Positions 32,507 to 57,144 of a DNA stretch of 64,000 nucleotides are shown one piece after another. The stretch covers positions 160,001 through 224,000 of the forward strand of contig CBDFMQ010000001.1 of assembly GCA_965249725.1 (NCBI GenBank). Reading direction: 5' to 3'. Below the pieces are notes generated by a model. The model worked only from the letters and a program-made list of their open reading frames with translations, was not told the DNA's origin and did not search any database. The number at the start of each line of letters is the position of its first letter. Within the stretch, counting starts at the first letter, position 1. A program made the position numbers and the translations under genes. The stretch comes from Longimicrobiales bacterium. GTDB lineage: Bacteria > Gemmatimonadota > Gemmatimonadetes > Longimicrobiales > Gaopeijiaceae.

Positions 32507-32518
32507 GCGCGGACGCTC

Positions 32519-35015: not shown

Positions 35016-36353
35016 ATGTGGCTTCTTCCCGTGCTCTCCGCGTCGTGCTGGTTGGTCAGCCGAGTCTTCTACCGACTCTCCGTGGACGGCCCAGAGGTCC
35101 CACCCGGCGGCCCGGTCCTGCTCGTTGCCAACCATCCGAACTCTCTCGTGGACCCCGTCATCGTCGCGGGTGTTACGGGCCGCCGCGTGCGGTTCTTGGC
35201 GAAGGCGCCACTGTTCACCGATGCCAAGATCGGGTGGATGGTCAGGGCGGCCGGAGCGATTCCGGTCTATCGAACGCAAGACGACCCGTCCGCAATGGGC
35301 CAAAACCGTGACGTCTTCGAGGCGGTCATCGGGGAGTTGGCGCACGGAGCGGCGATCGGGATCTTCCCGGAGGGCGTCAGCCACTCGGAGCCGTCTCTGG
35401 CCGAGCTGCGCACAGGTACCGCGCGCATGGCACTGGGCGCCTATGAGCAGACTGCCCGGACATTCCCCATCGTCCCGGTCGGAATCGTGCCGGCCCGGAA
35501 GGAGCGTTTTCGCTCAGAGATGCGGGTGGTTCTGGGAGAGCCCGTGCAATGGGACGATCTGGCCGAGCGAGGCCGTAAGGACCGTGATGCGGTACGGGAG
35601 CTCACGGCCCGGATCGATCAGGGGCTGAGGGGAGTCACCCTCAACCTGGAGAAATGGGAGGACCGGCCACTCGTGGAAACCGCCGAGGCGATATGGAGCC
35701 TCGAGGTGGAGGAGGCCGAGGGCCCGGCCCACCAGTTGCGCCGTTACGAGATCACCGCGCGGATCCTGTCCGCCGTCCGGCAGGGCTCGGACGACCGCTG
35801 GAAGGCCCTGCAGCGCGACCTTTCCAATCATTATCGTCGCCTGGCCCTGTTCGGGTTCGGACCAGGCGACCTGCACGCCGACGTGGGGATCCCGTCCAGC
35901 GTGCGTTGGTCGGCCCGTCGCCTCTACCTGGTCGGGATTCCCGTCATCGCTCTGGCCCTCGTGGGCCACATCACGTTCTGGGCCCCGTTCTGGCTCACGC
36001 GTTTTCTCACGGCGAGGGCGAGGCCGGCGCTCGATCGGATATCCACCTACAAGCTCCTGTTCGGGCTCCTGAACTACTCCGCCTGGGTGGCCCTGGTCGC
36101 CGCGGCGGGCCTGTGGGTATGGGGCTGGGGGGTGGGGCTGGCTCTGCTGCTGCTCATGCCTCCTCTAGGTATCACGGGGCTTTGGATCCGTGAGCGGTGG
36201 CGCTGGGGGTTCCGTGATGCCCGGCGGTTCCTGATCCTCCGTACCCGCAGGCACGTGATCGCCGAGTTGTTCGCCGAGCAGAAGCGCCTGGGCTCGGAGC
36301 TCCGGGCCCTATTCGGGGCTTGGGAATCGGGAGACCCCGGCCTGGGTCACTGA
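35016..36353 (+). CDS. Lysophospholipid acyltransferase (PlsC family) with C-terminal TM region
   Basis: NHPNSLVD, FLAK and FPEG motifs. Confidence 0.88.
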   Translation: MWLLPVLSASCWLVSRVFYRLSVDGPEVPPGGPVLLVANHPNSLVDPVIVAGVTGRRVRFLAKAPLFTDAKIGWMVRAAGAIPVYRTQDDPSAMGQNRDVFEAVIGELAHGAAIGIFPEGVSHSEPSLAELRTGTARMALGAYEQTARTFPIVPVGIVPARKERFRSEMRVVLGEPVQWDDLAERGRKDRDAVRELTARIDQGLRGVTLNLEKWEDRPLVETAEAIWSLEVEEAEGPAHQLRRYEITARILSAVRQGSDDRWKALQRDLSNHYRRLALFGFGPGDLHADVGIPSSVRWSARRLYLVGIPVIALALVGHITFWAPFWLTRFLTARARPALDRISTYKLLFGLLNYSAWVALVAAAGLWVWGWGVGLALLLLMPPLGITGLWIRERWRWGFRDARRFLILRTRRHVIAELFAEQKRLGSELRALFGAWESGDPGLGH

Positions 36354-37696
36354 AGCCCGATAGCGATCGCCAGGATGACCACGGCGGCGCCTAGGCCCAT
36401 GAGCACCAGATACCACTTCACGGTGAACTTGAGCCACTCCTGATACTCGACTCCCCCGGCGGCCAGTATGGCCATGAGGGCCCCGTTCGTCGGCGTGATG
36501 AGATCACAGAGTCCGGCTCCGTATTGGTACGCCAACACCGTGACCTGACGCGAGAGGCCCAGGAGGTCGGACAGGGGGATGAGCACCGGCATCGTCAGCA
36601 CGGCCTGCCCGCTCACGCTGGGCACCGGTACGTGGACGAAGACGTGAGAGACCATCATTCCCAGGGCCGAGAGGGCCACCGGAAGGTTGGCCACGGGGGT
36701 GAACATGCCGTGGACGATCGTGTCCACGATGCGACCCTGATCGAGCACCACGAAGATGGCTCTGGCGAAGCCGATGAGCAGGGCGGCATACGCCATCGAG
36801 CGGAATCCCTTCACGTATGCCTCCGCCGTGCCCATCACCCGGAGTCCACCCACGACACCGGCCACGATGCCCATGATGAAGAAGAGTGCCGACATCTCGT
36901 CGAAGCCCCATCCCATGCTCAGGATGCCCCAGATGAGGACAGCGAAGGTCGCCACGACCATGGCCAGAATCGACAGATCGTGGGGGCTCATGACTCCGTC
37001 CTCTTCATCTAAGTCTTCGGGAGCCTCGGGAGCCGTGCGGGTGCGCTCTGCGTGGCGCATGGTGGCGAAGATCCAGATGCCGAGGGCCACGGCGAGGAAC
37101 ACGATGCGGAAGAGGCCACCCGAAAGCAGTGGTAGCTCAGCCAGTTTCTGGGCGATGCCCACCTGGAACGGGTTGATGGGACTGAAGGCCGATCCCACGA
37201 AGGCGGCGCCGGCGCTCATCGACACTGCGGTGAGAGGCGCGAAACCCAGGCGCTTCGTCAGGATGAGCAGGACCGGCACGAGCGCGATGATCTCTTCCTG
37301 CATGTTCTCCAGGACGCCGCCGGTGGCGAAGGCGAGGCTCACCACCGGGATGACGAGGACCTCGCGGTTCTGTAGCCTCTTCACGAGCCAACCCACCGCG
37401 CTGCGCAGTGCGCCGGTCTCGTCTACCACGGTGAACGCCCCGCCGATGAGGAACACCAGAAAGACGACGTCTGCCGCGTCGGCCATGCCCTTCGGGATGG
37501 CGACAATGGCCTGGAAGAACCCGACCGGGGCAGGCTCCACCTCATGGTACGTGCCGGCCACGACGACGCTGCGACCCGTTATCGGGTCGTCCCGACGCTC
37601 GTACTGACCGGCGGGAAGCACGTAACTCAAGGCTGCCGCGATCAGAATGCAGCCGGTGAGCAGTGTGAGCGGATGCGGGAAGCGCGGCTTCGTCAT
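36347..37696 (-). CDS. YfcC family transporter (basic amino acid antiporter-like)
   Basis: PH...PAGQYER, SPINPFQVGIAQ, VPSVSGQA and PTNG motifs. Confidence 0.88.
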   Translation of the reverse strand: MTKPRFPHPLTLLTGCILIAAALSYVLPAGQYERRDDPITGRSVVVAGTYHEVEPAPVGFFQAIVAIPKGMADAADVVFLVFLIGGAFTVVDETGALRSAVGWLVKRLQNREVLVIPVVSLAFATGGVLENMQEEIIALVPVLLILTKRLGFAPLTAVSMSAGAAFVGSAFSPINPFQVGIAQKLAELPLLSGGLFRIVFLAVALGIWIFATMRHAERTRTAPEAPEDLDEEDGVMSPHDLSILAMVVATFAVLIWGILSMGWGFDEMSALFFIMGIVAGVVGGLRVMGTAEAYVKGFRSMAYAALLIGFARAIFVVLDQGRIVDTIVHGMFTPVANLPVALSALGMMVSHVFVHVPVPSVSGQAVLTMPVLIPLSDLLGLSRQVTVLAYQYGAGLCDLITPTNGALMAILAAGGVEYQEWLKFTVKWYLVLMGLGAAVVILAIAIGLQ

Positions 37697-37699
37697 CTG

Positions 37700-37978
37700 C
37701 TACTCCAGGTCGATTTCTGACTCGTAGTCATCCAGCCGGGCGATCCGCTCGAGAAAGAACCCGATGGCGTAGACGCCGGCGCCGCCGACCAGCATGTAGA
37801 CCGTTTCCACTCCCGACACAAACAGGAAGGCCGCGGCCATGATGATGAGGCCGAAGGTGGAGATCAGGCTGGCAAAGGGAGATACGCGGTGCTGGCGACC
37901 CCTGCGCACGACGGCGGAGATGCCGAGTGCCGCCGCCGAGGTAACCATGAACTTGAGGACGGTAGGCAAAGTGATCAC
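37700..37978 (-). CDS. Small hypothetical 3-TM membrane protein
   Basis: GTG start overlaps the upstream TGA (GTGA); three hydrophobic segments. Confidence 0.6.
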   Translation of the reverse strand: MITLPTVLKFMVTSAAALGISAVVRRGRQHRVSPFASLISTFGLIIMAAAFLFVSGVETVYMLVGGAGVYAIGFFLERIARLDDYESEIDLE

Positions 37979-39005
37979 GGCTTGGACTCCGTCGCGCTGA
38001 GGATCTCGGGGCCGTAGGCGAAGAGGGCCGGGGTACCGCCGGTATGCATGAATATGACCGGCTCGGGTCCTACCCGGCCCTTTCGGACCAGGTCCAAGAA
38101 TCCCGCAAAGGCCTTGCCTGTGTAGACCGGGTCCACGAGCAGGGCTTCTGTGCGGGCCGCAATGAGCATGGCCTCGGTGGCGGAGTCGGTCAGGCACCCA
38201 TAGGCCGGTCCGAGGAAGTCGTCCGTGACCAGGACGTCGTCCTCCTGCACGATCCCCACACAATCCAAGAGGGATTCCGTTCTGCGCACCACCCGTGTGA
38301 CCCGTCCCCTCTGCGCGTCCTGCCCGCGGCGGACGCAGATTCCGTGTACCGTAACGTCTCTCCGGCCCTGAGCCCTGAGTCCGACGAGCATGCCTGCATG
38401 CGTAGCAGCGCTGCCGCTGGCCAGCACGATGGTGCTCAACGGCACGTTCATCTCATCGGTCTGCTGAATGAGTTCTGCCGCTGCTTCTACGTACCCGAGG
38501 GCCCCGAGGGGCTCGTGTTCCTCCGATAGATAAATCAAGTAAGGGCGTTCCCCGCCTCTTCCAGACCTTGCGCGATTTCAGAGAGGGCTCGGTCGGCCCC
38601 TGCTTCATCCTCACCCTCGGGGTACGTGTGGAGGTGGGCACCCAGCAGCCGATTCAAGAGCACATTGCCCGATCCGTGATACACCTCGCCCATCCCCGGT
38701 ACGCGATCCTCCAGTTGGATGTGGCAGCCTAGCCCTAGCTTGGATGCGGCCGCAGCCACCGTCCGCACGAAGTTGGACTGAACCGCGCCGGTAACGAGGA
38801 CCGTGGTCGCACCGCGCTCGACGGCGTCTCCGAAGTAGAACTCGAGTTGGCGGGCCTTGTTGCCTCCTAGGGCGAGTCCGGTGCAGTCGTCTCGTTTCAC
38901 GAGCAGACTCGGCCCGCCCACGAGCTCCGAGAGGTTGGGCATGGGTTCCAGCGGAGTCGGGAGGTGGGCCAGCTCGACCCGGGGAAAGTCGGTCAGAGGA
39001 CGCAT
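37975..39005 (-). pseudogene. D-cysteine desulfhydrase / ACC deaminase / cysteate sulfo-lyase family PLP enzyme, split by a 1-nt deletion near 38550
   Basis: KRDDCTG.ALGGNK and QSN are in one frame; GALGY, DPVYTGKA and HTGG are in another. Adding one G to the G4 run (plus strand 38550-38553) restores AGERPYLIY and a 343-aa ORF. Confidence 0.85.
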
Positions 39006-39797: not shown

Positions 39798-40601
39798 CTA
39801 TGAACCGCTCCCTTCATGTCGCTCGACCCATCGCGGTATGACTTCCTGGATCCGGGCCACCCCATCGGTGAGCGCCGCCGGGCCCGGCTGCAGGATGAGG
39901 GGAGACTTGATCTCGTGCACTTCGTCATTACGAACGGCGGGAATCTCAGACCATCCGGGTCGAGCCACCAGCCTGTCCTTCTGGAACTTCCTACCGCACC
40001 ACGAACCGAGAATGATGTCAGGGGACCGTCGAATGACCTCGGCCGGGTCGGCGATGATCCGGCCTTTCGCCAGCGAAGATGCTGCCAGCTCCGGGAAGCA
40101 GTCCTCGCCTCCCGCGATCTCGACCAGCTCCGAGACCCATCGGATTCCCGAGATCAGGGGGTCGTACCATTCCTCGAAGTAGACGCGCGGACGGCGGAGG
40201 AACTCCGCAGCATGCGCGCGCACATCGGCGAGCCCGTCTTCCAGCTCCTCCGCCAGCCGAGCACCCTTCTGTTCACAACCGATCATGGATCCCAAGGTCC
40301 GAATCATCCGCAGAATCCCTGGCACGCTGCGGTGATTGAAGACATGCACCTCGACTCCTTGCCGGATCAACTCGGCGGCGATGTCGGCCTGGATGTCCGA
40401 AAAGCCGAGGACCAGGTCGGGTTCCAGGTCTAGAATCTGGTCGATCTTCGCGCTCGTGAAGGCCGAGACTTTGGGTTTTTCCCTTCTGGCCCGGGGTGGT
40501 CGAACGGTGAAGCCGGAGATGCCGACGATGCGCCAGTCTTCTTCCATCAGGTAGAGGGCTTCCGTGGTCTCCTCGGTGAGACAGACGAGGCGTTCGTACA
40601 T
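39798..40601 (-). CDS. BtuF-like cobalamin/siderophore-binding fold protein, no signal peptide
   Basis: RLVCLTEETTE, IVGISGFTVRP, PDLVLGFSD, YFEEW and ILQPGP motifs. Confidence 0.82.
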   Translation of the reverse strand: MYERLVCLTEETTEALYLMEEDWRIVGISGFTVRPPRARREKPKVSAFTSAKIDQILDLEPDLVLGFSDIQADIAAELIRQGVEVHVFNHRSVPGILRMIRTLGSMIGCEQKGARLAEELEDGLADVRAHAAEFLRRPRVYFEEWYDPLISGIRWVSELVEIAGGEDCFPELAASSLAKGRIIADPAEVIRRSPDIILGSWCGRKFQKDRLVARPGWSEIPAVRNDEVHEIKSPLILQPGPAALTDGVARIQEVIPRWVERHEGSGS

Positions 40602-40736: not shown

Positions 40737-42077
40737 ATGAGGACGAAGAGTGCTATGACCCTTGCCGCGACCCTGGCCGCCGTGGCTCTTCTCTCCACGG
40801 CCACGACCGTAGCCGCGCAAGACAATGCCGAGTCGCGTGGTAGCGACAACATCGAGGTGGTGTCCCACCTGCCCCTCGGCGCTCCGGGGAGTGTGTCCGA
40901 CATCGAGGTCGAACAGGACATGAACCGTCCTTTCGCGTACGTCGGCCGTGAAGTCCTTGGACAATCGGCCGGTGGCGATCGCGGGATCGATGTCATCGAC
41001 ATTGCGGACCCGGCAGATCCCAAGGTCATCCACCGTTGGCGGATCGAGGACAACGATCTACACGTCGGGGCGGGCGGCAAGGACATCAAGGCCTTCTCGT
41101 GGGACGGCCGTCACTACGTGATTCTGTCGGTCCAGTTCCGCCAGGGTGGGCCGGACTATGACCTGGGCGCCATCATCTTCGACGTGACGGGGCTCCCGGA
41201 TCCATCGAGTTTCCGGGAGGTCGCTCGAATCCAGGGCCCTGAGGAGCTGGGCGGCTTCCATAACATCTTCACATACATGCACAGCAACGGGCGCCCGCTG
41301 CTCTTTGCCACCACGACCACTCCGGCGGCTCACGTCTATGACTTGGGTCACGTCCTGGACGGGAGAAGCGACGAAGCCCTCGTTGCGCGCGTGCCGGTTC
41401 CGGGCGAGAACGCCCAGAGCTACCACGACTTCTACACGGGATACCACGCGGATAGCCAGCAGGACCGATTCTATGGTGGAGGCACCGGCGGATACTATGT
41501 GTTCGACGTGACCGACCTGGAGAATCCCGAACTGTTGGTGACGCTGACGGGAATCAGCGGAATCTCGTGGGGACACACGTTTACTCCGTCGCCGGACGGC
41601 CGGTACGTCATTTCCGAGGCCGAGTACCAGTATGCCCCACTGAGGATGTTCGACCTGAAGCCGGCGCTCGAGGGCGAGGTCTCGAACATCCGGCAGCCGA
41701 TCTCGGCGTGGACCGCCGACTGGGAGCACCTGGTGCACAACCATGAGGTCCGCTGGCCGTTCGTATTCGTGTCCGGATACCTGGACGGCCTCCAGATCTT
41801 CAGCATGCAGGATCCAAAGAAACCCAGGACGATCGCCCACTACGACACCTACCTGGAAGGTGAGGAGGACGGCGTCATGAACGGGGCGTGGGGCACGGAC
41901 GTGAGGAACGCCGACGGCCTGATCGTGGTGTCGGACATGGTAACCGGCTTCTGGGCTTTTCGTATGGAAGGCTTCAAGGGCTGGAACGGCCTCGACTGGG
42001 GGCAGCCGAACATTTCGAGCGTGCAGGATTGGGAGAACGGGCCCGAGTACCAGGCGCGGACTCGCTACCAGAACTAG
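40737..42077 (+). CDS. Secreted LVIVD-repeat beta-propeller, paralog 1
   Basis: Signal peptide ending AAQ; IDVIDIADPADP, IIFDVT and YVFDVTDLENP repeats; FHN/YHD/GHT/HNHE motifs. Confidence 0.85.
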   Translation: MRTKSAMTLAATLAAVALLSTATTVAAQDNAESRGSDNIEVVSHLPLGAPGSVSDIEVEQDMNRPFAYVGREVLGQSAGGDRGIDVIDIADPADPKVIHRWRIEDNDLHVGAGGKDIKAFSWDGRHYVILSVQFRQGGPDYDLGAIIFDVTGLPDPSSFREVARIQGPEELGGFHNIFTYMHSNGRPLLFATTTTPAAHVYDLGHVLDGRSDEALVARVPVPGENAQSYHDFYTGYHADSQQDRFYGGGTGGYYVFDVTDLENPELLVTLTGISGISWGHTFTPSPDGRYVISEAEYQYAPLRMFDLKPALEGEVSNIRQPISAWTADWEHLVHNHEVRWPFVFVSGYLDGLQIFSMQDPKKPRTIAHYDTYLEGEEDGVMNGAWGTDVRNADGLIVVSDMVTGFWAFRMEGFKGWNGLDWGQPNISSVQDWENGPEYQARTRYQN

Positions 42078-42121
42078 GCAGGAATCTCCCGTCGGAGATA
42101 GCCGTTTCAACGAGGTGACAG

Positions 42122-43456
42122 ATGAATACGAGCAAAAAGACGACACTCACGGCAGCTTTGGCCGGACTGGCCCTGGTTGTGGCGAGTGCCGCTCTCGGTG
42201 CGCAGGAGAACGCCGAGAAGCGTGGTAGCGACAACATCGAGGTCGTGGCTCACGTCCCCATGGGGGCCGAGGGCAGCGTATCGGACATCGAGATCTCTCA
42301 GGACATGGATCGCCCTTATGTCTTCCTCGGACGAGAGGTGTTCGGGGATATAAGCGGCATGGATCGTGGTATCGACGTGATCGACATCCATGATCCGGAG
42401 AATCCCGAAGTCTTGGTGCAGTGGAGGATCGAGGACTCCGAGCTCCATATGGGGGCCGGCGGGAAGGACCTGAAGGAGTTCAAGTGGAACGACCGTTATT
42501 ACGTGGTCCTCTCCACTCAGTTCTCGCAGGGGGGGCCCGATTACGATCTCGGCGCCATCATCTTCGACGTCACGGGGCTTCCGGATGCCTCGACGTTCCG
42601 TGAAGTGGCTCGCATCCAGGGTCCCCAGGAACTCGGCGGATTCCACAACATCTTCGTCTACAAGCACAGCAATGGCCGGGTCCTGCTCTTCACGACCACG
42701 AGCACGCCGTTTTCTCACGTGTACGACTTGGGCTACGTCGTAGAGGGACGGGGCGACGAGGCGCTGGTGGCGCGCGTGCCCGTTCCGGGGCCGGACGCCC
42801 GTAGTTACCACGACTTCTACACGGGCTTCCACGCTGACACCGAGCAGGATCGCTTCTATGGTGGCGGCACGGGCGGCTATTACGTCTATAACGTTACGGA
42901 CCTGGAGAATCCCGAGCTTCTGGTGAGCCTCACGGGGATCAACGGCGTTACGGGCGGCCATACCTTTACGCCTTCGGCCGACGGACGGTACGTCGTGGCC
43001 GAGACCGAGTACCAGTACGCGCCGCTGCGGATCTTCGACCTGAAGCCTGGGCTGGACGGAGAGGTGGCGAACATCAACCGACCCATCTCGGCCTGGACTG
43101 CCAATTGGGAGCACCTGGTGCACAACCATGAGGTGCGTTGGCCTTTCGTGTTCGTCTCGGGATACTGGGATGGCCTGCAGGTGTTCAGCCTCCAGGATCC
43201 CAAGAATCCCAAGACGATCGCCCACTACGATACCTTCCTCGAGCACAGTGAGAGCTCGATCATGAACGGCGCGTGGGGAGTGGACGTGCGCAATGCCGAC
43301 GGCCTGATCGTGATTTCCGACATGGCCACGGGCTTTTGGGCCTTCAGAATGCAGGGGTTCAGCGGCTGGAATGGCCTGGATTGGGGACAGCCGAACATCT
43401 CGAGCCAGCAGGACTGGGAGAATGGGCCTGCGGTTCAGGCACGCTCCCGTAACTAG
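42122..43456 (+). CDS. Secreted LVIVD-repeat beta-propeller, paralog 2
   Basis: Colinear with and highly similar to paralog 1; signal peptide ending GAQ. Confidence 0.85.
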   Translation: MNTSKKTTLTAALAGLALVVASAALGAQENAEKRGSDNIEVVAHVPMGAEGSVSDIEISQDMDRPYVFLGREVFGDISGMDRGIDVIDIHDPENPEVLVQWRIEDSELHMGAGGKDLKEFKWNDRYYVVLSTQFSQGGPDYDLGAIIFDVTGLPDASTFREVARIQGPQELGGFHNIFVYKHSNGRVLLFTTTSTPFSHVYDLGYVVEGRGDEALVARVPVPGPDARSYHDFYTGFHADTEQDRFYGGGTGGYYVYNVTDLENPELLVSLTGINGVTGGHTFTPSADGRYVVAETEYQYAPLRIFDLKPGLDGEVANINRPISAWTANWEHLVHNHEVRWPFVFVSGYWDGLQVFSLQDPKNPKTIAHYDTFLEHSESSIMNGAWGVDVRNADGLIVISDMATGFWAFRMQGFSGWNGLDWGQPNISSQQDWENGPAVQARSRN

Positions 43457-43487
43457 GCAGGCCCGTTCGCGTAACTAGTATCAGCGA

Positions 43488-43534
43488 TGCCCTTGGAGGA
43501 CCGGCGTGAGACTGCACCGGCCCTCCATCGGGCA
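43488..43534 (+). other. GC-rich stem-loop after paralog 2
   Basis: Imperfect inverted repeat TGCCC..GGAGG.CCGG / CCGG.CCTCC..GGGCA; no clear U tract. Confidence 0.45.
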
Positions 43535-43575
43535 ACTTGTGAGGATCTTAGCGCGAAAACTGTGAAATCCTTTAC

Positions 43576-43605
43576 TTGACAGACCAGACGAGGCTGTTCT
43601 ATATA
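43576..43605 (+). promoter_or_regulatory. Sigma70-type promoter for the OMP-susC-susD unit
   Basis: Perfect TTGACA (43576-43581), 18-nt spacer, imperfect TATATA; AT-rich patch. Confidence 0.5.
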
Positions 43606-43692
43606 CCCGTTACGATTATTTTCACCGAAGGCTGCATCGAGGATCGGCGCGTCCTACGTCCGACCCGTGGTCAGCCATTGAACGCGAGGGCG

Positions 43693-44346
43693 ATGTCCAT
43701 GATACAACTTCGTTCGCTTTTCTTCACGGCCTTGCTCGGCTTTATGCTGGCCACGCCGGCATCGTCGCAGTCTACTGACGTGGTCGGGCAGCTGTCGCTG
43801 CACTTGCAGGGAGGACTTACGTCCGACCCGGTTGGGTTTGATGCCTTCCGGGAGACCACGTTTGGGTCCGCTACCGCCATCGGCGGCGGATTCACCTACG
43901 TGATCTACGAGAACGTTGCCGTACGCGGCGACTTCCATTACGCACCGAAGACCGGGCGCGAAGAGTGCTGCTCGGCTCGGGCTCTCGGCGACGGACTGGG
44001 CGTCACGGTGCCTGCCAACCCGGGGGCTGTCTCTGAGGACGTCGACTTCAACCGAAAGTACTTCGGCGCGAGTGTCCTCATCCGATTCCCGATGTCCGCA
44101 GCCGTTCCGTACCTCAAGCTCGGCGGTGGTTTCATCGACATCAAGCGCGATGCGCCGACGTATCAGTATGACTTCGCGGAGTTCGGTGCCCAGCTCGGCG
44201 CCGGCGTCTCGTTGCCGCTCGGTGACTCGGGTGCGGCGTTCTTTGCCGACGTTGTCGAGTGGATCTATGCGCGCACCGGTACGGGCGAGGGCAATCAGTA
44301 TGACACCCTCGTCAGCGCTGGGCTCTCGTACGCGTTCATCCGCTAG
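43693..44346 (+). CDS. Small outer-membrane beta-barrel protein (OmpA/OmpW-like)
   Basis: Signal peptide; strands such as VPYLKLGGG and GAQLGAGV; terminal AGLSYAF. Confidence 0.75.
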   Translation: MSMIQLRSLFFTALLGFMLATPASSQSTDVVGQLSLHLQGGLTSDPVGFDAFRETTFGSATAIGGGFTYVIYENVAVRGDFHYAPKTGREECCSARALGDGLGVTVPANPGAVSEDVDFNRKYFGASVLIRFPMSAAVPYLKLGGGFIDIKRDAPTYQYDFAEFGAQLGAGVSLPLGDSGAAFFADVVEWIYARTGTGEGNQYDTLVSAGLSYAFIR

Positions 44347-44362
44347 ACGGATCTCCGAATGG

Positions 44363-44395
44363 TCGGACCTGGACGCTCGGCGCGTCCGGGTCCGA
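44363..44395 (+). other. 14-bp intercistronic hairpin before susC
   Basis: TCGGACCTGGACGC-tcggc-GCGTCCGGGTCCGA. Confidence 0.6.
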
Positions 44396-44445
44396 GCAGT
44401 ACATTCAGCTTCTCGCCGATTACCTTTTTTAGGGGGGTAAGTACG

Positions 44446-47400
44446 ATGGACCGATTGCTACGGAAGACGTACTCTATCGTTCTGGTCGCACTGTTGTTGG
44501 GGCCCTTGGGCTTCAGCGCGGCGGCACAGACGAACGTAGCGGGGACAGTGGTCTCCGGTACAGGGCAGCCGCTCGCGGGCGTGCAGATCTCGATTCCCAA
44601 TCTACAGATGGGAACGCTGACCAACTCCGACGGGCGTTTCGTGATTCAGAACGTACCCAACGGTGCGCAGATCATGCGTGCGGAGTTGATCGGGTATGAG
44701 GCTCAGCAGCGTCGTGTAGACGTTCAGGGCACGACGGTCACGGAAAACTACACACTCATCGAGACGGCCGTTGAGCTCGAGGGCCTGGTTGTAACGGCTC
44801 TCGGCATCAGCCGTGACGAGCGAGCGTTGGGTTACGCGGTGCAGGACATTCAGGGCGACGACATTGCCGATTCGGGCGTGTCGACGAACCTGGTGACCGC
44901 ACTGTCCGGTAAGGTTTCCGGCGTGTTGATCAAGAACCAGGGCGCCATGGGCGGCCGTTCAGACATCACGATCCGCGGGCTCGCGTCGATCGCCGGTAAC
45001 AACCAGCCACTGTTCGTAGTGGACGGTGTGCCGATCGACAACGGGACCGACTTCTACGAGTCGAGTATCAACCGTGTGGACTACGGCAACGCGGCACAGG
45101 ACCTGAACCCTGACGACATCGAGTCGATCTCGGTGCTCAAGGGTGCGAACGCTGCGGCGCTTTATGGTTCCCGAGCCTCGAACGGCGTGATCCTGATCAC
45201 GACGAAGAAGGGCGCGGGGGCCGACGGCCGGTTGGAGATCACGGCGAGTGCTGAAGCGTCGTTCGCCACGTCTACGATCTCGCCTCGCTGGCAGAACGTG
45301 TACGGCGGCGGCGACCGTGAAGAGAACTTCGAGTTCAAGGACGGAGCCGGTGGTGGCGTCGGTGACTACATCGACGAGAGCTGGGGCCCGCCGATGAACG
45401 GGCAGCTGTACAACCAGTGGACCGCCGATCCGACGGATGCGGACGGTATCGCGCTGCGTCCTTGGCTGCCGGTCGCATACTCGACGCGTGACCTGTTCGA
45501 GACGGGCATCAACATGACCGAGCACTTCTCGGTAGCGGGAAGCTCTGGCGAGGCGAACGGCCGTCTGTCGGCCACGCAGGTCAACGCGGACGGACAATCG
45601 CCCGGACACGAGATTGACCGCACGCAGTTGTCGATCGCCGCGGGCGTGACGCCGATTCCGAGCCTTCGGGTTCAGGGTTCTGCGAGCTACGTGAAGAGCG
45701 GTGGTACGAACCGTCCTCTGAACGATGGTGGGTCGCTGAACTCGGCGACGTACCAGTATCTGTGGTGGCAGCGCACGAATGAGACGCAGATGCTCAAGCG
45801 TGCGTACGACCTGTGGCTGGAAAAGGGCAGTGAGTTCGGCCCGGATCACCCCGGAAGCGGCCTGCCGCGCAACTGGAACCACAACTATTGGGACAACATC
45901 TACTACGTGCTGGCCGAAGCCGGGAACAGGGACACGCGTGACCGCTTCATCGGCAACGTCGATTTGGACTACTCGTTCAGCGACGCAGTCTCGATCTCGG
46001 CCCGTGTAGGTACGGACTGGTACGAGCACCGTCGTAAGAACGTGTTCCCGATGTTCAGTCACGACTACAAGTTCGGCGCGTTCATCGACCAGTCGATCTT
46101 CCGTCAGGAGACGAACTTTGACGTCGTGCTGACCGCCCAGGGTGACCTGAGCGACGACTTCAACGTGGCGGTGCGTGGTGGCGTGAACCGTCGTGCGAAC
46201 GACACGAACCGTCACTCGGTCGAGACAGAGCGTCTGATCGTACCCGGGCTCTACACGCCGCAGAACTCCGCGGTACCGCCCACGGTCGACAACTGGATCA
46301 CCGAGAAGCGCGTATACAGCGCCTATGGCCTGGGCTCGCTCTCGTTCCGCAACTACGCCTTCGTCGACGTGACGGCCCGCAACGACTGGTCGTCGAGTCT
46401 TCCCGAGGGCAACAACTCCTACTTCTACCCGTCGGTGTCGGCCAGCTTGGTTCTGTCTGACGCGTTCCAGTGGGACGGCGGCGTCTTCGACTACGCGAAG
46501 GTCCGTGCTAGCTGGGCCGAGGTCGGCAGTGACGCCGATCCTTATCAGACCAGCGCCGTGATGACTCAGCTGCAGACCTTCCAGGGTTCGCCTGGGTTCA
46601 TCCCGAGCAACGATCTTCCGGCTCTCGCCTTGAGGCCTGAGATCACGACGTCGTGGGAAGTCGGAGCCGACGTACGGTTCGCGGACAACCGGGCGACGAT
46701 GGACCTGACGTACTACAACACGAAGACGCGGGACCAGATCTTGTCGGTCCCGATCTCGACCACGAGTGGGTTCGCGAACCAGATCATCAACGCGGGCGAG
46801 GTGAAGAACGCCGGTATCGAGGCTCTTCTCACGACCGAGATCATGAGGGGCACTGGCCTGCAGTGGGACATGACGCTGAACTGGGCGCGCAACCGCAGTG
46901 AGGTGCTCGCACTTCACGAGTCGCTCGACCGCATCGTGCTGGGCAACTACGCGGTCACGTACGAGGCTCGTATCGGTGAGCCCTACGGCGTGCTCTACGG
47001 TGACGACTTCAAGCGCGATGCGAACGGCACGCCGGTCGTGACCAGCAACGGCTACCCGGCGCGTTCAGCGACGAAGCAGCCGCTGTGTCCTGGTGGGTCG
47101 GACGGCGCCGTGTGTAAGGACGGCGAACGTGCGACGAGTGAGCCGGACTGGATCGGCGGAGTCCGCAACGATTTCCGCTTCGGTCTGATGCAGCTCAGCT
47201 TCCTGCTGGACGTCCGCTGGGGCGGCGTCTTCTACTGCGGTACCTGCAGCTTGGGCCACCGCGATGGTCTCACGTACGAGAGCGCACACTACGGTGGGCG
47301 TCTGGACGGCGTGACGGTCGACGAGCACTGGAACTTCAGTGGCCGTCGGACGGACGTGGTGGGTGTGAACCTGCTGGGCGTGAAGGAAGACGGATCGGCC

Positions 47401-47730
47401 AACGACATCTACGTCGACGGCAAGATCTTCTGGAATCAGTTCCGTGGTGCGGAGTCTCCGCATGTTCAGCGGGCGACGTTCGGCAAGCTGCGCGAGGTCA
47501 AGCTGAGCTTCGACCTCACGCCGAACGTGCTTGAGAAGCTTCCATTCTCGACGGGCCGGATCACGTTGGTGGGTCGCAACCTGAAGACCTTCTGTGGCTC
47601 GCTGGCTTGCAAGAACATCGACCCCGAGTCTGATGGTGTGGCGTTCGCCGACAACCACGCACGTGGCGTGGAGTACCTGTCGGCTCCGTCGGACCGGACG
47701 TTCGGCATCAACTTCACCGTGACCAGGTAA
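44446..47730 (+). CDS. susC: SusC/RagA family TonB-dependent outer-membrane transporter
   Basis: N-terminal carboxypeptidase-like domain; VVTALGI, PLFVVDGVP and DIESISVLKGANAAALYGSRASNGVILITTKKG; RNDWSS and YFYPSVS. Confidence 0.95.
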   Translation: MDRLLRKTYSIVLVALLLGPLGFSAAAQTNVAGTVVSGTGQPLAGVQISIPNLQMGTLTNSDGRFVIQNVPNGAQIMRAELIGYEAQQRRVDVQGTTVTENYTLIETAVELEGLVVTALGISRDERALGYAVQDIQGDDIADSGVSTNLVTALSGKVSGVLIKNQGAMGGRSDITIRGLASIAGNNQPLFVVDGVPIDNGTDFYESSINRVDYGNAAQDLNPDDIESISVLKGANAAALYGSRASNGVILITTKKGAGADGRLEITASAEASFATSTISPRWQNVYGGGDREENFEFKDGAGGGVGDYIDESWGPPMNGQLYNQWTADPTDADGIALRPWLPVAYSTRDLFETGINMTEHFSVAGSSGEANGRLSATQVNADGQSPGHEIDRTQLSIAAGVTPIPSLRVQGSASYVKSGGTNRPLNDGGSLNSATYQYLWWQRTNETQMLKRAYDLWLEKGSEFGPDHPGSGLPRNWNHNYWDNIYYVLAEAGNRDTRDRFIGNVDLDYSFSDAVSISARVGTDWYEHRRKNVFPMFSHDYKFGAFIDQSIFRQETNFDVVLTAQGDLSDDFNVAVRGGVNRRANDTNRHSVETERLIVPGLYTPQNSAVPPTVDNWITEKRVYSAYGLGSLSFRNYAFVDVTARNDWSSSLPEGNNSYFYPSVSASLVLSDAFQWDGGVFDYAKVRASWAEVGSDADPYQTSAVMTQLQTFQGSPGFIPSNDLPALALRPEITTSWEVGADVRFADNRATMDLTYYNTKTRDQILSVPISTTSGFANQIINAGEVKNAGIEALLTTEIMRGTGLQWDMTLNWARNRSEVLALHESLDRIVLGNYAVTYEARIGEPYGVLYGDDFKRDANGTPVVTSNGYPARSATKQPLCPGGSDGAVCKDGERATSEPDWIGGVRNDFRFGLMQLSFLLDVRWGGVFYCGTCSLGHRDGLTYESAHYGGRLDGVTVDEHWNFSGRRTDVVGVNLLGVKEDGSANDIYVDGKIFWNQFRGAESPHVQRATFGKLREVKLSFDLTPNVLEKLPFSTGRITLVGRNLKTFCGSLACKNIDPESDGVAFADNHARGVEYLSAPSDRTFGINFTVTR

Positions 47731-47746
47731 GGGAAAGGAGACCAAG

Positions 47747-49339
47747 ATGCGAAACTTGAAGATGAGATCGCTTATCGTCCTCCTGACCGTTGCCATTCTT
47801 GGCACGGCGGGGTGTGACGAACTGAGTAACCTGACGGATATCAATGAAAACCCTAACGCCCCGACGTCACTGTCGCCGGAGTTCCTACTCCCGTCATTGA
47901 TCCGGGGTCTGGCGGACAAGCTGGTCGGTGAGAACAACATCGACCTGCCTCGGGTCTCCCTGTTCGTGCAGCACTTCGCTCGCATCCAGTACGCGAGCAC
48001 GGATCGTTACGATCTGGGCACGGACTTCGGATCCTGCTGCTGGAACGATTTCTTCACGCTGAGTGGCGATCCGCCGAACGGCGTGTTCGTCCTGGCCCAA
48101 AACGTGCTGAATGGTGCCATTGAGGTGGGTGATGCGAATCAAACGGCGGTGGCCAAGATCCTGAAGGCCTACGCCGTCCACAACCTGGTCGACCTGTACG
48201 GCGACGCGCCCTATTTCGACGCCGTCAAGGGCGGCGCGGAAGAGGCCATCATCAGGCCGGCCTACGATGCGCAGAGCGCGATCTACGACGACATGTTAGC
48301 AGAGCTCACCGCAGCGTCCAGCATGATCAACACGGGCGCTTCCGGGTTCCCCGGCGGTGACCTGATGTACAGCGGCGACATGGACAAGTGGCGCCGGTTC
48401 GCCAACTCGCTCAGGCTGCGGTTGGCCATGCGCATGTCCGAGGCAAACCCGGGCAAGGCTCAGACCGAGGCAGCGGCTGCGGTAGCGGCCGGGGTCATGG
48501 AAGATGCCTCGCACTCGGCGGCCCTCTGGTACTCGGCGGCAGCGCCGGACCAGAACCCCATGTGGGTCGGGTTCGTCGAGCGTCCGGGTGACTATCGCCC
48601 GGCGAAGTACTTCATCGACGAGATGCTCGTTCGTGACGATCCGCGTGTCCGCCTCCATGCGGACGCGGCCGTCGACGCATTGCCCGAATTGGTTTACCGT
48701 GGCATGCCGAACGGACTTAACGACGACCGTGGCTTCGACGATGCCGACGAGCGGGACTTCGACTTCGTCTCGGTGGTCGGTGCCTGGCACTTGAGGCCCG
48801 ACGCTCCTGCGTTCTTCATGGAGTACGCGGAGACGCTGCTTCTGCAGGCCGAGGCGGCTGATCGCGGTTGGATCGGCGGAAGCGCCCAGGACCTCTACGA
48901 GGCAGGCATCACCGCTGCGATGATGGTCTACGCCGACGGTACGGCTGCGGACGCGGGTGCGTTCGTTACGCCTGCCGTGCCTGGCATCACTCAGGCCGAG
49001 ATCGACGCGTATCTGGCCGGGCCGATGGTGGCCTGGGACGGCGGTGGTATTGGCGGCGAGAGCAACCGGTCGCTGATCTACCGGGCGTACTGGTTCCAGC
49101 TCTGGGATCAGGGCATCGAGGCGTACAGCAAGTATCGGCGCACCAACGTGCCGCACCTCATTCCTGGCACCGATGCGTTCAACGCGTTAGTGCCCGTGCG
49201 CTTTCCGTATCCGCGGAGTGAGCAGACGTTCAACGAGACCAACGTTCTCTCAGCCATCTCCGCCAATGGCGGAGACGATGCGTGGGACAGTAGAGTCTGG
49301 TGGGACGTTTCGGACCAAGCTTCCGGTCCGGGTAACTAG
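47747..49339 (+). CDS. susD: SusD/RagB family lipoprotein
   Basis: Lipobox TAGC; NENPN, DLYGDAPY, KWRRFANSLRLR, DPR, PVRFPYP and RVWWD motifs. Confidence 0.93.
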   Translation: MRNLKMRSLIVLLTVAILGTAGCDELSNLTDINENPNAPTSLSPEFLLPSLIRGLADKLVGENNIDLPRVSLFVQHFARIQYASTDRYDLGTDFGSCCWNDFFTLSGDPPNGVFVLAQNVLNGAIEVGDANQTAVAKILKAYAVHNLVDLYGDAPYFDAVKGGAEEAIIRPAYDAQSAIYDDMLAELTAASSMINTGASGFPGGDLMYSGDMDKWRRFANSLRLRLAMRMSEANPGKAQTEAAAAVAAGVMEDASHSAALWYSAAAPDQNPMWVGFVERPGDYRPAKYFIDEMLVRDDPRVRLHADAAVDALPELVYRGMPNGLNDDRGFDDADERDFDFVSVVGAWHLRPDAPAFFMEYAETLLLQAEAADRGWIGGSAQDLYEAGITAAMMVYADGTAADAGAFVTPAVPGITQAEIDAYLAGPMVAWDGGGIGGESNRSLIYRAYWFQLWDQGIEAYSKYRRTNVPHLIPGTDAFNALVPVRFPYPRSEQTFNETNVLSAISANGGDDAWDSRVWWDVSDQASGPGN

Positions 49340-49357
49340 ACTCTAGTCTAGAGCTTT

Positions 49358-49399
49358 ACCCCGCGCCTCCTGCCTCACGGCAGGGGGCGCGGGTTTTTT
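49358..49399 (+). terminator. Rho-independent terminator after susD
   Basis: CCCGCGCCTCCTGCC-tcac-GGCAGGGGGCGCGGG followed by T6. Confidence 0.9.
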
Positions 49400-49528
49400 G
49401 TGGGTACACGCCAGAGGCGTTGGTCTTTCATGGAGTGGGACGTTAAGATGCCCCGCGGCCTTTCAGAGGCTCGAGCGCTTTCAACCGGCGGACACTCCCG
49501 CCCACGTCCGCATCCTATGAGGTGATCC

Positions 49529-50848
49529 ATGAGAATCCACACAGCTGGACTGCTTGCCGCTACGCTGGCAGGTGCGAACCTCCTTCTAGTGAGTCCCGCC
49601 ACGGCTCAGGAGGACAGTGAGAGTCGTGGGAGCGACAACATCGAGGTGGTGGCTCACCTCCCGTTGGGCGAGAGGGTGTCGGACATCGAGGTCGAGCAGG
49701 ACATGAACCGTCCTTACGTCTATGTGGCCCGCGAGGGGCGCGGACTCGACATCATCGACATCGCCGATCCCTATGACGCCAAGGTCATTCTTCGGTGGAG
49801 TTTCGAAGACATGGACGTGCACATCGGGTCCGCGGGCAAGGACATCAAGATCTTCGAGTACAACGGGCGTAACTACGTCGTCCACTCCGTACAGTTCCGC
49901 CAGGGTGGCCCGGACAATGATCTGGGCGCCGTCATCTTCGACGCCACCGATCTTCCGGACGTTTCGACGTTCAGGGAAGTGGGTCGGATCCAGGGGCCCG
50001 GTGAGGTCGGTGGATTCCACAACATCTTCGTCTACCGGCACAGCAATGGCCGTCCCCTCCTCTTCACCACGGTGGGTGGGCCTTTTGCCAACGTCTACGA
50101 CCTGGGATACGTGGTCGATGGGCGTACCGACGATGCATTGGTGGCTCAGGTCCCTGTGCCCCAAGGCCAGACACCGGGCCGGGTCGGCGCCGCCGGCTAT
50201 CATGACTTCTATACCGGCTACGACGCTGACAGCGAGCAGGACCGCTTCTACGGCGGTGGCACCGGTGGCTACTACGTGTACAACGTCACCGATCTGGAGA
50301 ACCCCGAGCTGCTGGTCAGCTTGACCGGGATCAACGGCGTCCGGCGTGGACACACCTTCACGCCGTCCCCTGATGGCCGCTACGTCATCGCGGAGACCGA
50401 GTACCAGTACGCTCCGCTTCGGATCTTCGACCTGAAGCCGGGTCTGGATGGCGAGGTGGCGAACATCAACCGGCCCATCTCGGCGTGGACGGCGAACTGG
50501 GAGCATCTGTCGCACAACCATGAGGTGCGCTGGCCGTACGTGTTCGTATCGGGCTATGTGGACGGACTGCAGATCTTCACGTTGTCCGATCCCGCGCATC
50601 CGAAGACGATCGCGCATTACGACACGTACCTCGAGCCAGAAGACGCCGGTGTCATGAACGGCTCCTGGGGCGTAGACGTGCGCAACGAAGACGGGCTGAT
50701 CGTGATGTCCGACATCCAGACGGGTTTCTGGGCCTTCAAGATGGAGGGCTTCGCCGGCTGGAACGGACTGGATTGGGGCGTGCCGAACATCTCCAGCGTT
50801 CAGGACTGGGAGAACGGACCGGCCGTGCAGGCGCGGACGCGCAACTAG
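49529..50848 (+). CDS. Secreted LVIVD-repeat beta-propeller, paralog 3
   Basis: Colinear with paralogs 1 and 2; same four His motifs and GWNGLDWG.PNISS.QDWENGP tail. Confidence 0.85.
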   Translation: MRIHTAGLLAATLAGANLLLVSPATAQEDSESRGSDNIEVVAHLPLGERVSDIEVEQDMNRPYVYVAREGRGLDIIDIADPYDAKVILRWSFEDMDVHIGSAGKDIKIFEYNGRNYVVHSVQFRQGGPDNDLGAVIFDATDLPDVSTFREVGRIQGPGEVGGFHNIFVYRHSNGRPLLFTTVGGPFANVYDLGYVVDGRTDDALVAQVPVPQGQTPGRVGAAGYHDFYTGYDADSEQDRFYGGGTGGYYVYNVTDLENPELLVSLTGINGVRRGHTFTPSPDGRYVIAETEYQYAPLRIFDLKPGLDGEVANINRPISAWTANWEHLSHNHEVRWPYVFVSGYVDGLQIFTLSDPAHPKTIAHYDTYLEPEDAGVMNGSWGVDVRNEDGLIVMSDIQTGFWAFKMEGFAGWNGLDWGVPNISSVQDWENGPAVQARTRN

Positions 50849-50927: not shown

Positions 50928-51641
50928 ATGAACTCATCGGCCCTCAGCTTTCTCGGAACCCCCGCCCACCGCCGTGAGGCGGGAAGGGTTTTCCTCGCCG
51001 CCCTGGTCATAACGGCTGCCTTGGCGTTGCTGACGGCCAGGCTCGCGCGCGGTCCATCCTGGCTCGAATTGGTCGGGACCTCCACCGGGCTCTGCAATGT
51101 GTGGCTGCTTCGCAAACAGAACATCGTGGCTTGGCCGTTCGGGATCGTGAGTGTCACCGCGGTGGGCCTGGTCTTCTACCGCCTGGGCCTCATGGGCCAG
51201 GCCTGGCTGCACCTATTCTACTTTCTTCCCATCAACTGGTGGGCCTGGTATCACTGGGTGCGCGGAGGGGAGCATCGGACGGAGCTGCACGTCAGTTGGA
51301 CGCACTGGAAGGAGTGGCTCTTCTACGTGCCATTGTTCCTGGTTGCCACCTACCTCGTGGCGAGCTTCTTCGATCGCGTCTACGACCGGGCCGTCTTCGT
51401 CTATTGGGATGCGACGATCGTGGCTGCGAGCGTGATCGCACAGTGGCTCTTGAGCCGCAAGAAGATCGAGAGCTGGGTCCTTTGGGTCGGGCCGGTGGAC
51501 GCGTCGGCGATCCTCCTTTTCTCGCTTACCGGAGCGTATATGTTCAGCGCCCTGTACATTGTGTTCCTCTTGAATGCGTCCGCGGCGATATACGAATGGC
51601 GAGCGGATTGGAATCGGAGGGCGGCGCCTTCCACGGCCTGA
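50928..51641 (+). CDS. pnuC: PnuC family vitamin/nicotinamide riboside transporter
   Basis: WL..KQNIVAWPFG, WYHW and D...V.AQWLLSRKKIESWVLW...D motifs. Confidence 0.85.
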   Translation: MNSSALSFLGTPAHRREAGRVFLAALVITAALALLTARLARGPSWLELVGTSTGLCNVWLLRKQNIVAWPFGIVSVTAVGLVFYRLGLMGQAWLHLFYFLPINWWAWYHWVRGGEHRTELHVSWTHWKEWLFYVPLFLVATYLVASFFDRVYDRAVFVYWDATIVAASVIAQWLLSRKKIESWVLWVGPVDASAILLFSLTGAYMFSALYIVFLLNASAAIYEWRADWNRRAAPSTA

Positions 51642-53738: not shown

Positions 53739-55610
53739 CTACCGGGTTCGGTTCTCCATCATCACCAAGCCGCCGCCGAGGCTCCCGGAGAAGACGTCGA
53801 GATCTCCGTCCCCGTCGATGTCCACAACCGAAGGCGTGGAGTAGTTGGGAAGCGTAAGGGTGAACGTCGAGTCCTGAACGAATACGGGATCGGCCGTCCC
53901 TCCCTCGCGGCGGTAGAGCAGTAACCCTCCGGCCTCCCGACCGAGAAGCAGGTCCTCATCTCCGTCCCCGTCCATGTCGGCGAAGGTTGGGAAGCTCCGG
54001 CGACCGGCGTCCATCCCTTGGAAATTGTCGCTCACTAGCTCGAATGTGGGAGCCTGTGGCGTCCCTACATTGCGGTAGAAGTTGAGCTCTCCCGACGACT
54101 CCCCGATGAAGAGGTCCAGATCGCCGTCTCCATCCACATCCGTCAGTGCCGGGGTGCTGTTGCTGCCCCGCGTGAGCTTGATGAGCGTCGTGTCGGCGAG
54201 CACGAAGTCGGGCCTTTCGCTCGAGCCCTCGTTCACGTAGAAGGACACGCCCTTGTTCCAGGTACCCATCAGCATGTCCAGGTCACCGTCGCTGTCCAGG
54301 TCACCCATCGCCGGCGCGTAGTGGTACATGGTGAAGAGCTCGATCCGCTCTCGCTCTTCGAAGGAGGGCTCCTGTGTGGATCCCACATTCTCGAAGCGGT
54401 ACATGCGAGAGGTGCGGGTGTCGCTCGGATCGATCTTGTTGGAAAGGAGCAGGTCCAGGTCGCCGTCCCCGTCCAGATCGGTGAACGTTGGAATGCTCTC
54501 GCTCCCCACATCGATCGTGTAGATGAAGCGCTCGGTCTGTCGGCTGAAGCGGCCGTCGACCTGCTCGTAGAAGAGGAAGTTCCGGATCGTGGTCAGGTTG
54601 GGGTTGAAGGCTCCCCCGAGGACTCCGACGTAGAGGTCCAGGTCCCCGTCGTTGTCCACGTCGGCCAGCGCCGGGACGTTGTATCCACTCGTCGTCAGGG
54701 AGTCCTCGACCTCGAAGGGCAGGGGCTCACCGAGCAGAATCGGTTCGCTACACGATCCCGTGTTCTCCAGGTAGAGCACGCTGGCCTCGAAGAAGTCGCC
54801 CCAGAAGAAGTCGAGATCGTCGTCGTCGTCCATGTCGGCGAACGCCATCGAGTTCGCGCCGTGTAGGCTGCCCGCCATGGCGGCGACGATCTCGATGCCC
54901 TGGAAGCGATCCTCTACGAATCGGAAGAGCGGCGCCCCGTCGGCGGACGTCGTCGACGTCTCGTAGCGGCTGATCGTCCCATCCACGCGCCCCAAGAAGA
55001 GATCCCAATTGCCGTCGCAGTCGATGTCGTTGAGGCTCGGGATGTTCTGCCGGTCTGCGAAGAGGGGCTCCCCGTCGACGTCGCGGGCCGAGTCATCGAC
55101 TGCCAAGAACGCCGCCCCCTGAGGTGTGCCCTCGTTGCGGAAGTAACGCACATAGCTGAACGGGTTTTCCGCCAGTAGGTCCAGATCGCCATCTCGGTCG
55201 AAGTCGAGGAAGCGGCTCCACTCCCCGATCTCCAGATCCTGATACGTGTCGGTACGCCAGACGAAGCGTGGCTCACTTGGAGATCCCACGTTCTCGAAGT
55301 GCATGAGTTCGCCCGTGCGCTCCTGGAGGAACAGGTCCAAGTCGCCGTCGCCATCGAGATCGGCGAACTGCGGACGCGGCACGTTCAGCCCGCCCAGAAG
55401 GGGCGACTCGTAAGGCCGCCCCGCCTCATCCAGAAACGAGAGAGCATCCACGACACGCACGAAGCCACTGGCCTCTTGGCCCTCTCCGGTAGCATCGACC
55501 GGCGCTGTGGCCGCGGGCATGCCGTAGCCGCCGCAGCTCGTGATCGCCAAGGAGCTCAGGGCCCACAAGGCCACTCCGCGACCGGCCAATGTCACCGAAA
55601 CTTCCGTCAT
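53739..55610 (-). CDS. FG-GAP/VCBS repeat lipoprotein (Ca-binding beta-propeller)
   Basis: Lipobox ITSC; about 10 DxDGDGDxD-type repeats. Confidence 0.88.
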   Translation of the reverse strand: MTEVSVTLAGRGVALWALSSLAITSCGGYGMPAATAPVDATGEGQEASGFVRVVDALSFLDEAGRPYESPLLGGLNVPRPQFADLDGDGDLDLFLQERTGELMHFENVGSPSEPRFVWRTDTYQDLEIGEWSRFLDFDRDGDLDLLAENPFSYVRYFRNEGTPQGAAFLAVDDSARDVDGEPLFADRQNIPSLNDIDCDGNWDLFLGRVDGTISRYETSTTSADGAPLFRFVEDRFQGIEIVAAMAGSLHGANSMAFADMDDDDDLDFFWGDFFEASVLYLENTGSCSEPILLGEPLPFEVEDSLTTSGYNVPALADVDNDGDLDLYVGVLGGAFNPNLTTIRNFLFYEQVDGRFSRQTERFIYTIDVGSESIPTFTDLDGDGDLDLLLSNKIDPSDTRTSRMYRFENVGSTQEPSFEERERIELFTMYHYAPAMGDLDSDGDLDMLMGTWNKGVSFYVNEGSSERPDFVLADTTLIKLTRGSNSTPALTDVDGDGDLDLFIGESSGELNFYRNVGTPQAPTFELVSDNFQGMDAGRRSFPTFADMDGDGDEDLLLGREAGGLLLYRREGGTADPVFVQDSTFTLTLPNYSTPSVVDIDGDGDLDVFSGSLGGGLVMMENRTR

Positions 55611-57108: not shown

Positions 57109-57144
57109 CGGGCCCGCGTGTCGGCGCATAGCTTGACGGACGAC

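Follow-up and report, generated by a model that had tools for sequence, protein, structure and literature searches.

The locus described here occupies positions 40737-50848 of a 64,000-nt window, the whole stretch of DNA that was analysed (contig CBDFMQ010000001.1 of a Longimicrobiales bacterium), and combines a SusC/SusD importer (SusCD) with three related β-propeller proteins, P1, P2 and P3. Coordinates are those of the window, and all six genes lie on the + strand: P1 (40737-42077, 446 residues) and P2 (42122-43456, 444 residues) are followed by the gene for a small outer-membrane β-barrel protein (OMP; 43699-44346, 215 residues, PF13505), by susC, encoding a SusC/RagA TonB-dependent transporter (44446-47730, 1094 residues), by susD, encoding a lipoprotein of the SusD-like_2 family (47747-49339, 530 residues), and by P3 (49529-50848, 439 residues). 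This order, with its strand and coordinates, had been proposed in an earlier, sequence-only reading, and gene calls and family matches bear it out. The tandem susC-susD pair is identified by matches to TIGR04056 (514 bits, over the cut-off), TIGR04057 (64 bits) and PF12771 (293 bits), and the SusD N-terminus carries a TAGC lipobox. The closest sequences, 90-97% identical, are from Longimicrobiales in the phylum Gemmatimonadota, which supports a host outside the Bacteroidota.

A putative promoter-like motif, TTGACA-N18-TATATA (43576-43605, +), precedes the OMP gene; it rests on an alignment of intergenic regions (TTGACA-N18-TAwATA, with TTGACA invariant in 6 of 6) and is not listed by a generic promoter scan. 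A strong intrinsic terminator with a 15-pair stem and a T run follows susD (49360-49400, +), and its hairpin is also present in all four sequences folded. Because OMP-susC-susD carries its own promoter-like motif and terminator, the six genes are probably divided among three transcription units: P1-P2, OMP-susC-susD and, beyond the terminator, P3. The six genes are present in the order proposed, but together they do not form a closed system: the central unit has boundary signals of its own and the propellers belong to a 45-copy family. Upstream of the OMP gene lies a conserved candidate leader hairpin (43630-43676, +; consensus -31.9 kcal/mol, 5 sequences), none of whose 26 pairs shows a compensatory change; in Rfam, the leader region matched no family at the gathering score and no riboswitch, with two sub-threshold matches on hairpins. 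As had been noted before, a family scan of the window proteins recognises no carbohydrate-active enzyme (CAZyme), peptidase or regulator within 40737-50848, and a Pfam scan found no sensor-regulator next to susCD between 39798 and 55610. The sole glycosidase-family match among the scanned window proteins is a GH4 protein 29 kb from the locus.

The three propellers are 74-75% identical in pairwise comparison. GAGGTG, taken as a ribosome-binding site, is indeed found 5' of each start, and all three proteins end in the tail GWNGLDWG.PNISS.QDWENGP; this tail is family-wide, degenerate copies included, and we rejected it as a locus-specific tag. Each protein begins with a basic N-terminus, a hydrophobic stretch and a small-residue cleavage site before Gln, in agreement with the signal peptides assigned to them (a judgement by eye, without a predictor); on inspection we found no Cys, twin-Arg motif or lipobox, and all three look Sec-exported and soluble. 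Two labels given to them earlier hold only in part. "His-rich" describes a slightly raised content, 3.0-3.4% vs 2.0% proteome-wide, at the 81st-90th percentile of 898 similar-sized proteins; it is the position of the histidines, not their content, that matters. "LVIVD propeller" is backed by a family match in P3 only, which scores 23.4 bits against PF08309 (threshold 20.2 bits); P1 and P2 have no Pfam match. For the choice-of-anchor B family TIGR04312, P1-P3 score 54.5, 63.6 and 66 bits, below the cut-off of 100.

The structure prediction and Foldseek comparison that the sequence-only reading had suggested were carried out: the AlphaFold model of P2, built on a 103-row alignment, is a seven-bladed propeller with a predicted local distance difference test score (pLDDT) of 95.6, and PDB entry 5hrm ranked first among fold matches. 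To describe conservation we use the numbering of mature P2 and count over 98 intact rows, five degenerate Rhodothermales rows being excluded from these counts and from the tree. Six histidines (H82, H148, H203, H253, H307 and H309) are kept in 94-98 of the 98 rows, as are D28, E32, D89, D204, E310 and D361. Four of the histidines, H148, H203, H253 and H307, occupy the same position, at the start of the first strand in blades 3-6, and near them E267 and E269 are each conserved in 84 rows. From the geometry of the propeller it follows that the histidines would form a ring in the central channel. The five degenerate copies are without the six histidines (one has H at the H82 column) and retain H155 and the Trp residues of the tail, and because of this pattern functional residues can be told apart from structural ones. 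P1-P3 carry a probable metal site. The degenerate copies open the Rhodothermales loci L038, L052, L055, L061 and L072, before intact copies, and may possibly be non-catalytic subunits. A separate long-branch clade of 11 copies (L009, L020, L015, L019, L006:9598) has Cys at 87, Met at 267 and, in most copies, an N-terminal CFGDPTC-like motif; four of its copies flank a susCD, and its chemistry may be different.

The host genome encodes 45 members of this family in 21 clusters, one with an internal stop; this is about 1% of the roughly 3,700 genes called. Two genomes of the same genus have 15 and 36 matches and the remaining 28 relatives 0-3; in a sample of the phylum, 120 of 401 genomes have matches, with separate expansions in G277 (91), G206 (27) and G392 (16), these last figures being numbers of matches rather than exact copy numbers. 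The family is compact, with 237 representatives at E below 1e-30 and 11,399 at 0.001. Ratios of nonsynonymous to synonymous substitution rates (dN/dS) against orthologues are 0.024-0.048 for P1, 0.018-0.067 for P2 and 0.03-0.055 for P3, and between paralogues 0.12-0.16, with 58 fixed differences; these values indicate strong purifying selection on each paralogue, the paralogues being kept as distinct proteins. We rejected the ideas that the array is young or that gene conversion has acted on it recently, because synonymous sites are close to saturated in all paralogue comparisons. Larger arrays exist elsewhere: ten copies in L003/L004 (G000:C1:682960-701453), ending with a small protein and a multicopper oxidase, both described below, and 6-10 copies in L099, L157, L163, L169 and L173. 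Atlas neighbours of the propellers carry the automatic name LVIVD, and the N-Zinclopedia database may hold members of the family.

The proximity of importer and propellers is repeated beyond this locus. At four of the five susCD loci in the host genome the nearest propeller is no more than 2 kb away. Each of these four loci also encodes the small barrel, of which the genome has no other copies; the barrel is thus a marker of this type of locus. Measured against loci placed uniformly, a propeller lies within 5 kb of susCD at 4 of 5 loci in the host (null 0.42, P = 2.5e-4), at 4 of 6 in G277 (P = 0.009) and at 7 of 18 in G206 (P = 4e-4, treating that genome as one pseudo-chromosome). G277 and G206 were chosen for high propeller copy number before their SusC positions were known, and they represent another family with a SusCD type unrelated to the host's (PF07980 SusD; SusC about 26% identical). 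Five other long TonB-receptor-like proteins of the host have no propeller within 17 kb. Among metagenome relatives, the order propeller-OMP-susC(-susD) is found in 4 of 72 loci at 78-95% identity and susD-OMP-propeller in a fifth. In L021, a 481-residue open reading frame (ORF), probably a mobile element, lies between the susD terminator and P3 (17517-18960), and the G001 counterpart of the locus (L115) is heavily fragmented (susC, susD, P1, P3), through either decay or assembly errors.

A second and more frequent association is with copper proteins. Among the 80 best genome loci (those closest to P2) of 599 confirmed, and counting an oxidase when it lies within the stored flank of the propeller locus, we found a multicopper oxidase in 51, a small secreted protein in 51, both in 50 and a susCD pair in one; several of the remaining loci are short contigs. 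The earlier view of the propellers as dedicated parts of the locus studied here is not supported: P1-P3 are three of 45 paralogues, and the usual partners are the oxidase and the small protein. The co-occurrence of propeller homologues with susCD is split: it exceeds random expectation in the host, G277 and G206, which represent two families, and recurs in a third family, but appears in only 1 of these 80 loci. In 72 metagenome loci, the oxidase occurs in 18, the small protein in 24, and OMP or susCD in 5; 15 of 20 further, hand-picked propeller loci have the oxidase. Oxidase-bearing loci span Gemmatimonadota, Acidobacteriota and Rhodothermota in several gene orders. The small protein (170-200 residues) ends in GxSRSGxMHTxAGHGP..E.C, is fused as a domain to an oxidase once in the host genome, and falls into unnamed Atlas clusters, with weak YoqH and RskA_C leads. 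All three multicopper oxidases of the host are next to propellers, and 16 of its 45 propellers belong to clusters that adjoin an oxidase gene or a small-protein gene. The N-termini of the oxidases are Met/His-rich, and most oxidases have all copper ligands; in the host lineage three cluster histidines are replaced by Arg, Asn and Gln and the type 1 site is kept (RWHG for HWHG and NCQ for HCH in L004:9814-11451, L008:8601-10748 and L014:4902-6674). The same change is seen in L097, L099, L120, L163, L171 and L175.

The two associations meet in G277, where the small protein, the oxidase, susC, susD and eight propellers lie on one strand, and where a second locus has all parts. They probably also meet in G023, where two contig ends carry small protein-oxidase-OMP-susC and susC-susD-propeller, respectively: the SusC pieces are complementary (residues 1-827 and 967-1074 of the reference) and are likely one gene, and the propeller is sister to the host C1 susCD-linked copy (Shimodaira-Hasegawa-like approximate likelihood ratio 99; quick tree, 119 rows).

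As for the cargo, no CAZyme or sulfatase is present among the proteins scanned at the five host susCD loci, which upholds the assignment as a non-polysaccharide locus; a CBM9-like/DUF5916 protein lies near two of the five. Genes for DUF3179 and DUF5916 proteins recur on the flanks of OMP-susCD in L002, L279, L280 and L288. The best solved relative of SusC is BT2264 (E 1.7e-99; next 4e-36), which is peptide-binding and has been seen with bound peptide (PMC7782687). Recurrent neighbours of susCD loci, given as raw occurrence, are peptidases (S9, M19, M20, M24, M28, M1), amidohydrolases, CN hydrolases, gamma-glutamyltranspeptidase, amino-acid permeases and aminotransferases. Because glycosidases are lacking, peptide- and amide-enzyme genes are neighbours and SusC is nearest to BT2264, the cargo is likely of a peptide or amine type.

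Taken together, we propose that this is a SusCD importer operon amid three predicted metal-enzyme propellers that act on a non-glycan cargo at a likely copper site, a reading to which we give a probability of little more than one in three (about 0.36). SusCD would capture a non-glycan, probably peptide- or amine-type, nutrient and import it into the periplasm. There P1-P3, as soluble proteins, would bind metal inside the central channel, with H148, H203, H253 and H307 as ligands assisted by H82, H309 and the acidic residues, and would act on the imported cargo at this multi-His, likely copper, site. The multicopper oxidase and the small MHTxAGHG protein, encoded elsewhere in the genome, would supply copper or take up electrons in trans, and each paralogue may have been retained since its loops give a different specificity. 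A bolder version has SusCD importing non-glycan organic nitrogen, up to 45-91 His-ring propellers per genome oxidising it, and a dedicated oxidase with its small partner delivering copper or carrying electrons away. This would be an undescribed periplasmic system, a utilisation locus based on copper redox chemistry that arose separately in more than one lineage of Gemmatimonadota; it is tentative and, on balance, somewhat unlikely. The module of propeller and oxidase could itself amount to an enzyme system of a new kind.

Within our proposal, copper redox chemistry is weighted slightly above hydrolysis. Sb-PTE, the haloalkylphosphorus hydrolase/phosphotriesterase of Sphingobium sp. TCM1, reportedly has a binuclear centre, and its metal ligands are four His and a bridging Glu. 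Hydrolysis is a close rival, since this hydrolase is the one protein of solved structure to which sequence searches lead: the 103-row profile matches only 5hrm and 5ioj, both Sb-PTE, at E below 0.001 (best E 7e-5), and Foldseek places 5hrm first (E 1.7e-9, template-modelling score 0.63, 14% identity). P1-P3 would then be two-metal (Mn/Zn/Fe) hydrolases cleaving amide, ester or phosphoester bonds of the same imported cargo, with the oxidase aiding only in metal supply; four His at one blade position with conserved E267/E269 nearby would suit such a site, and the neighbouring enzymes are mostly hydrolases. SusCD for organophosphorus compounds exists in the form of PusCD (bioRxiv 10.64898/2026.09.03.749221), and given the kinship to Sb-PTE an organophosphorus cargo is possible by analogy. 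However, the match is remote and 5hrm is outside the VIA-align top 50, although these lists, taken up by generic WD40 proteins (Z 29-32), do not rank relatives. A three-row profile finds no PDB entry under E 0.2. Hydrolysis leaves unexplained the oxidase in 51 of 80 loci and two further near-invariant histidines, and the 11-copy clade is without E267. A plain hydrolase would give little reason for a dedicated oxidase with a Met/His-rich N-terminus and a partner bearing a His/Met motif, the six histidines exceed the four of Sb-PTE, and the host-lineage oxidase keeps its electron-transfer copper and loses oxygen-site ligands; for these reasons copper redox is slightly preferred, and we regard the hydrolase as somewhat unlikely.

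Several observations weigh against our proposal. The host's three oxidases are probably unable to reduce oxygen in the usual way because three of their eight cluster histidines are gone; the best solved relatives of SusD are a mixture of glycan binders and proteins without an assigned ligand; and no copper propeller enzyme turned up in the profile search or at the head of the Foldseek list. Other points concern the link itself. Only 12 of the 45 host paralogues touch a susCD locus (an automated count of 13 includes one opposite-strand copy), and SusCD-adjacent propellers are spread over at least four clades. In an order-wide comparison of 150 genomes, with positions compared by eye and with PF12771, which misses other SusD types, 31 of 63 propeller-bearing genomes are without SusD-like_2, and of 32 other genomes with both, one (G023) has the two genes less than 10 kb apart. 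In the host's own genus, a propeller is adjacent to 3 of 5 SusD matches in G002 and to 1 of 3 in G001, and adjacency is scarce in G392 and G437. The P values assume uniform placement and could be inflated by shared flexible regions. A rival view is that the neighbourhood is incidental, a mobile OMP-susCD cassette having landed between tandem propellers where both gene types gather. The cassette has, after all, its own promoter-like motif and terminator; L031 has a propeller at this spot with no trace of it, while L022 and L023 keep P2, by synteny the copy retained in relatives that lost the cassette, with only a C-terminal remnant of susD. Ten of 11 genomes of genus g6 have OMP-susCD away from a propeller, and G002 has a second, broken copy of host-type susCD without propellers. 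Against this, adjacency recurs with two unrelated SusCD types, several propeller clades and three families, gene order is kept among the metagenome loci, and other host TonB receptors are not near propellers. The link is real and repeated but not obligatory; we lean towards its being functional, and hold mere coincidence of position to be quite unlikely. The susD remnants (L022:11308 onward; L023:11401-11583) mark the deletion of the cassette in these close relatives.

The propellers might instead be non-enzymatic metal- or ligand-binding proteins of the periplasm that accept a metal chelate or cofactor brought in by SusCD, but we hold this to be highly unlikely. In its favour are the copper-oxidase context, a BtuF-like protein upstream, a PnuC-family transporter downstream and very high copy numbers (45, 91), which would suit a binding repertoire. 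Against it, L022, L023, L031 and L122 have no pnuC at the corresponding position, the BtuF-like gene is transcribed divergently and persists where the cassette is missing, and a buried, invariant group of His, Asp and Glu residues, alongside sister copies that have degenerated, has the look of a catalytic site.

The BtuF-like periplasmic binding protein (39798-40601, -), divergent from P1, is syntenic in all five close relatives compared, and the PnuC-family vitamin transporter (50928-51641, +), directly after P3, is present in L021; vitamin uptake as the core of the locus was rejected, pnuC being patchy among relatives. Further upstream lies a group for amino-acid catabolism comprising arginine deiminase, ornithine carbamoyltransferase, a carbamate kinase-like protein and a DcuC-family transporter (30027-33424, +; 36347-37696, -). 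A pyridoxal-phosphate enzyme resembling D-cysteine desulfhydrase/1-aminocyclopropane-1-carboxylate deaminase (37975-39005, -) is split into two overlapping frames by a frameshift or assembly error, and is one 345-residue gene in L122. Downstream are an FG-GAP repeat lipoprotein (53739-55610, -), beside which L022 and L023 have a choice-of-anchor-B-like propeller protein; a Nal1/S64-like serine protease domain gene (56047-57342, +) followed by a 74-residue ORF, syntenic in L022, L023 and L031; and a protein without Pfam match (57507-58178, +) with low-complexity repeats (GEAFS four times, and LESL repeats).

Work on SusCD systems has been confined almost entirely to Bacteroidota and has dealt mainly with glycan import. 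In the uncultured Gemmatimonadota lineage described here, SusCD is tied to an enzyme-like family without a characterised close member, and we found no description of a SusCD-propeller system among the papers listed for LVIVD/choice-of-anchor B proteins, for Gemmatimonadota SusCD and for Longimicrobiales, sponges and multicopper oxidases (subscription papers and bioRxiv supplements lying outside this scope). Operons joining oxidase, small protein, SusCD and propellers make the question testable: a ligand trapped by SusCD should name the propeller substrate. The answer would show the diet of these marine heterotrophs and could yield a new class of metal enzyme.

It is instructive to compare the locus with known systems. 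Sb-PTE shares the seven-bladed propeller, but the proteins described here are 14% identical to it, with six conserved His, an oxidase and SusCD context and a family-specific Trp-rich tail; the family is remote kin of a characterised enzyme, but we found no report tying Sb-PTE to SusCD loci. TIGR04312/PF08309 proteins match weakly over most of the propeller length, whereas P1-P3 fall below the TIGR04312 cut-off and are single-domain; against the profile built from the propellers, those choice-of-anchor-B-like proteins of the host that are more typical reach no more than 16-30 bits. Methanethiol oxidase and nitrous oxide reductase are seven-bladed copper propellers with a His-rich tunnel site and accessory copper or electron-transfer partners. 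Thiocyanate dehydrogenase, with seven blades, three coppers in a His-rich tunnel and similar partners (PMC9456337), offers the same likeness by analogy only: none of the three has a sequence match to our propellers or is among their top fold matches, lists that generic WD40 propellers occupy. BT2263/BT2264, RagAB and PusCD are likewise SusC/SusD pairs without CAZymes (PMC7782687; bioRxiv 10.64898/2026.09.03.749221), and differ in that here the host is a gemmatimonadote, a small barrel is added and uncharacterised propellers with predicted metal sites flank the pair. The adjacent CAZymes or sulfatases and the sensor-regulator that mark a polysaccharide utilisation locus are absent, and SusC is nearest to a peptide importer. 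The locus is thus a variant of the SusCD utilisation locus, joined to a propeller family that is itself uncharacterised.

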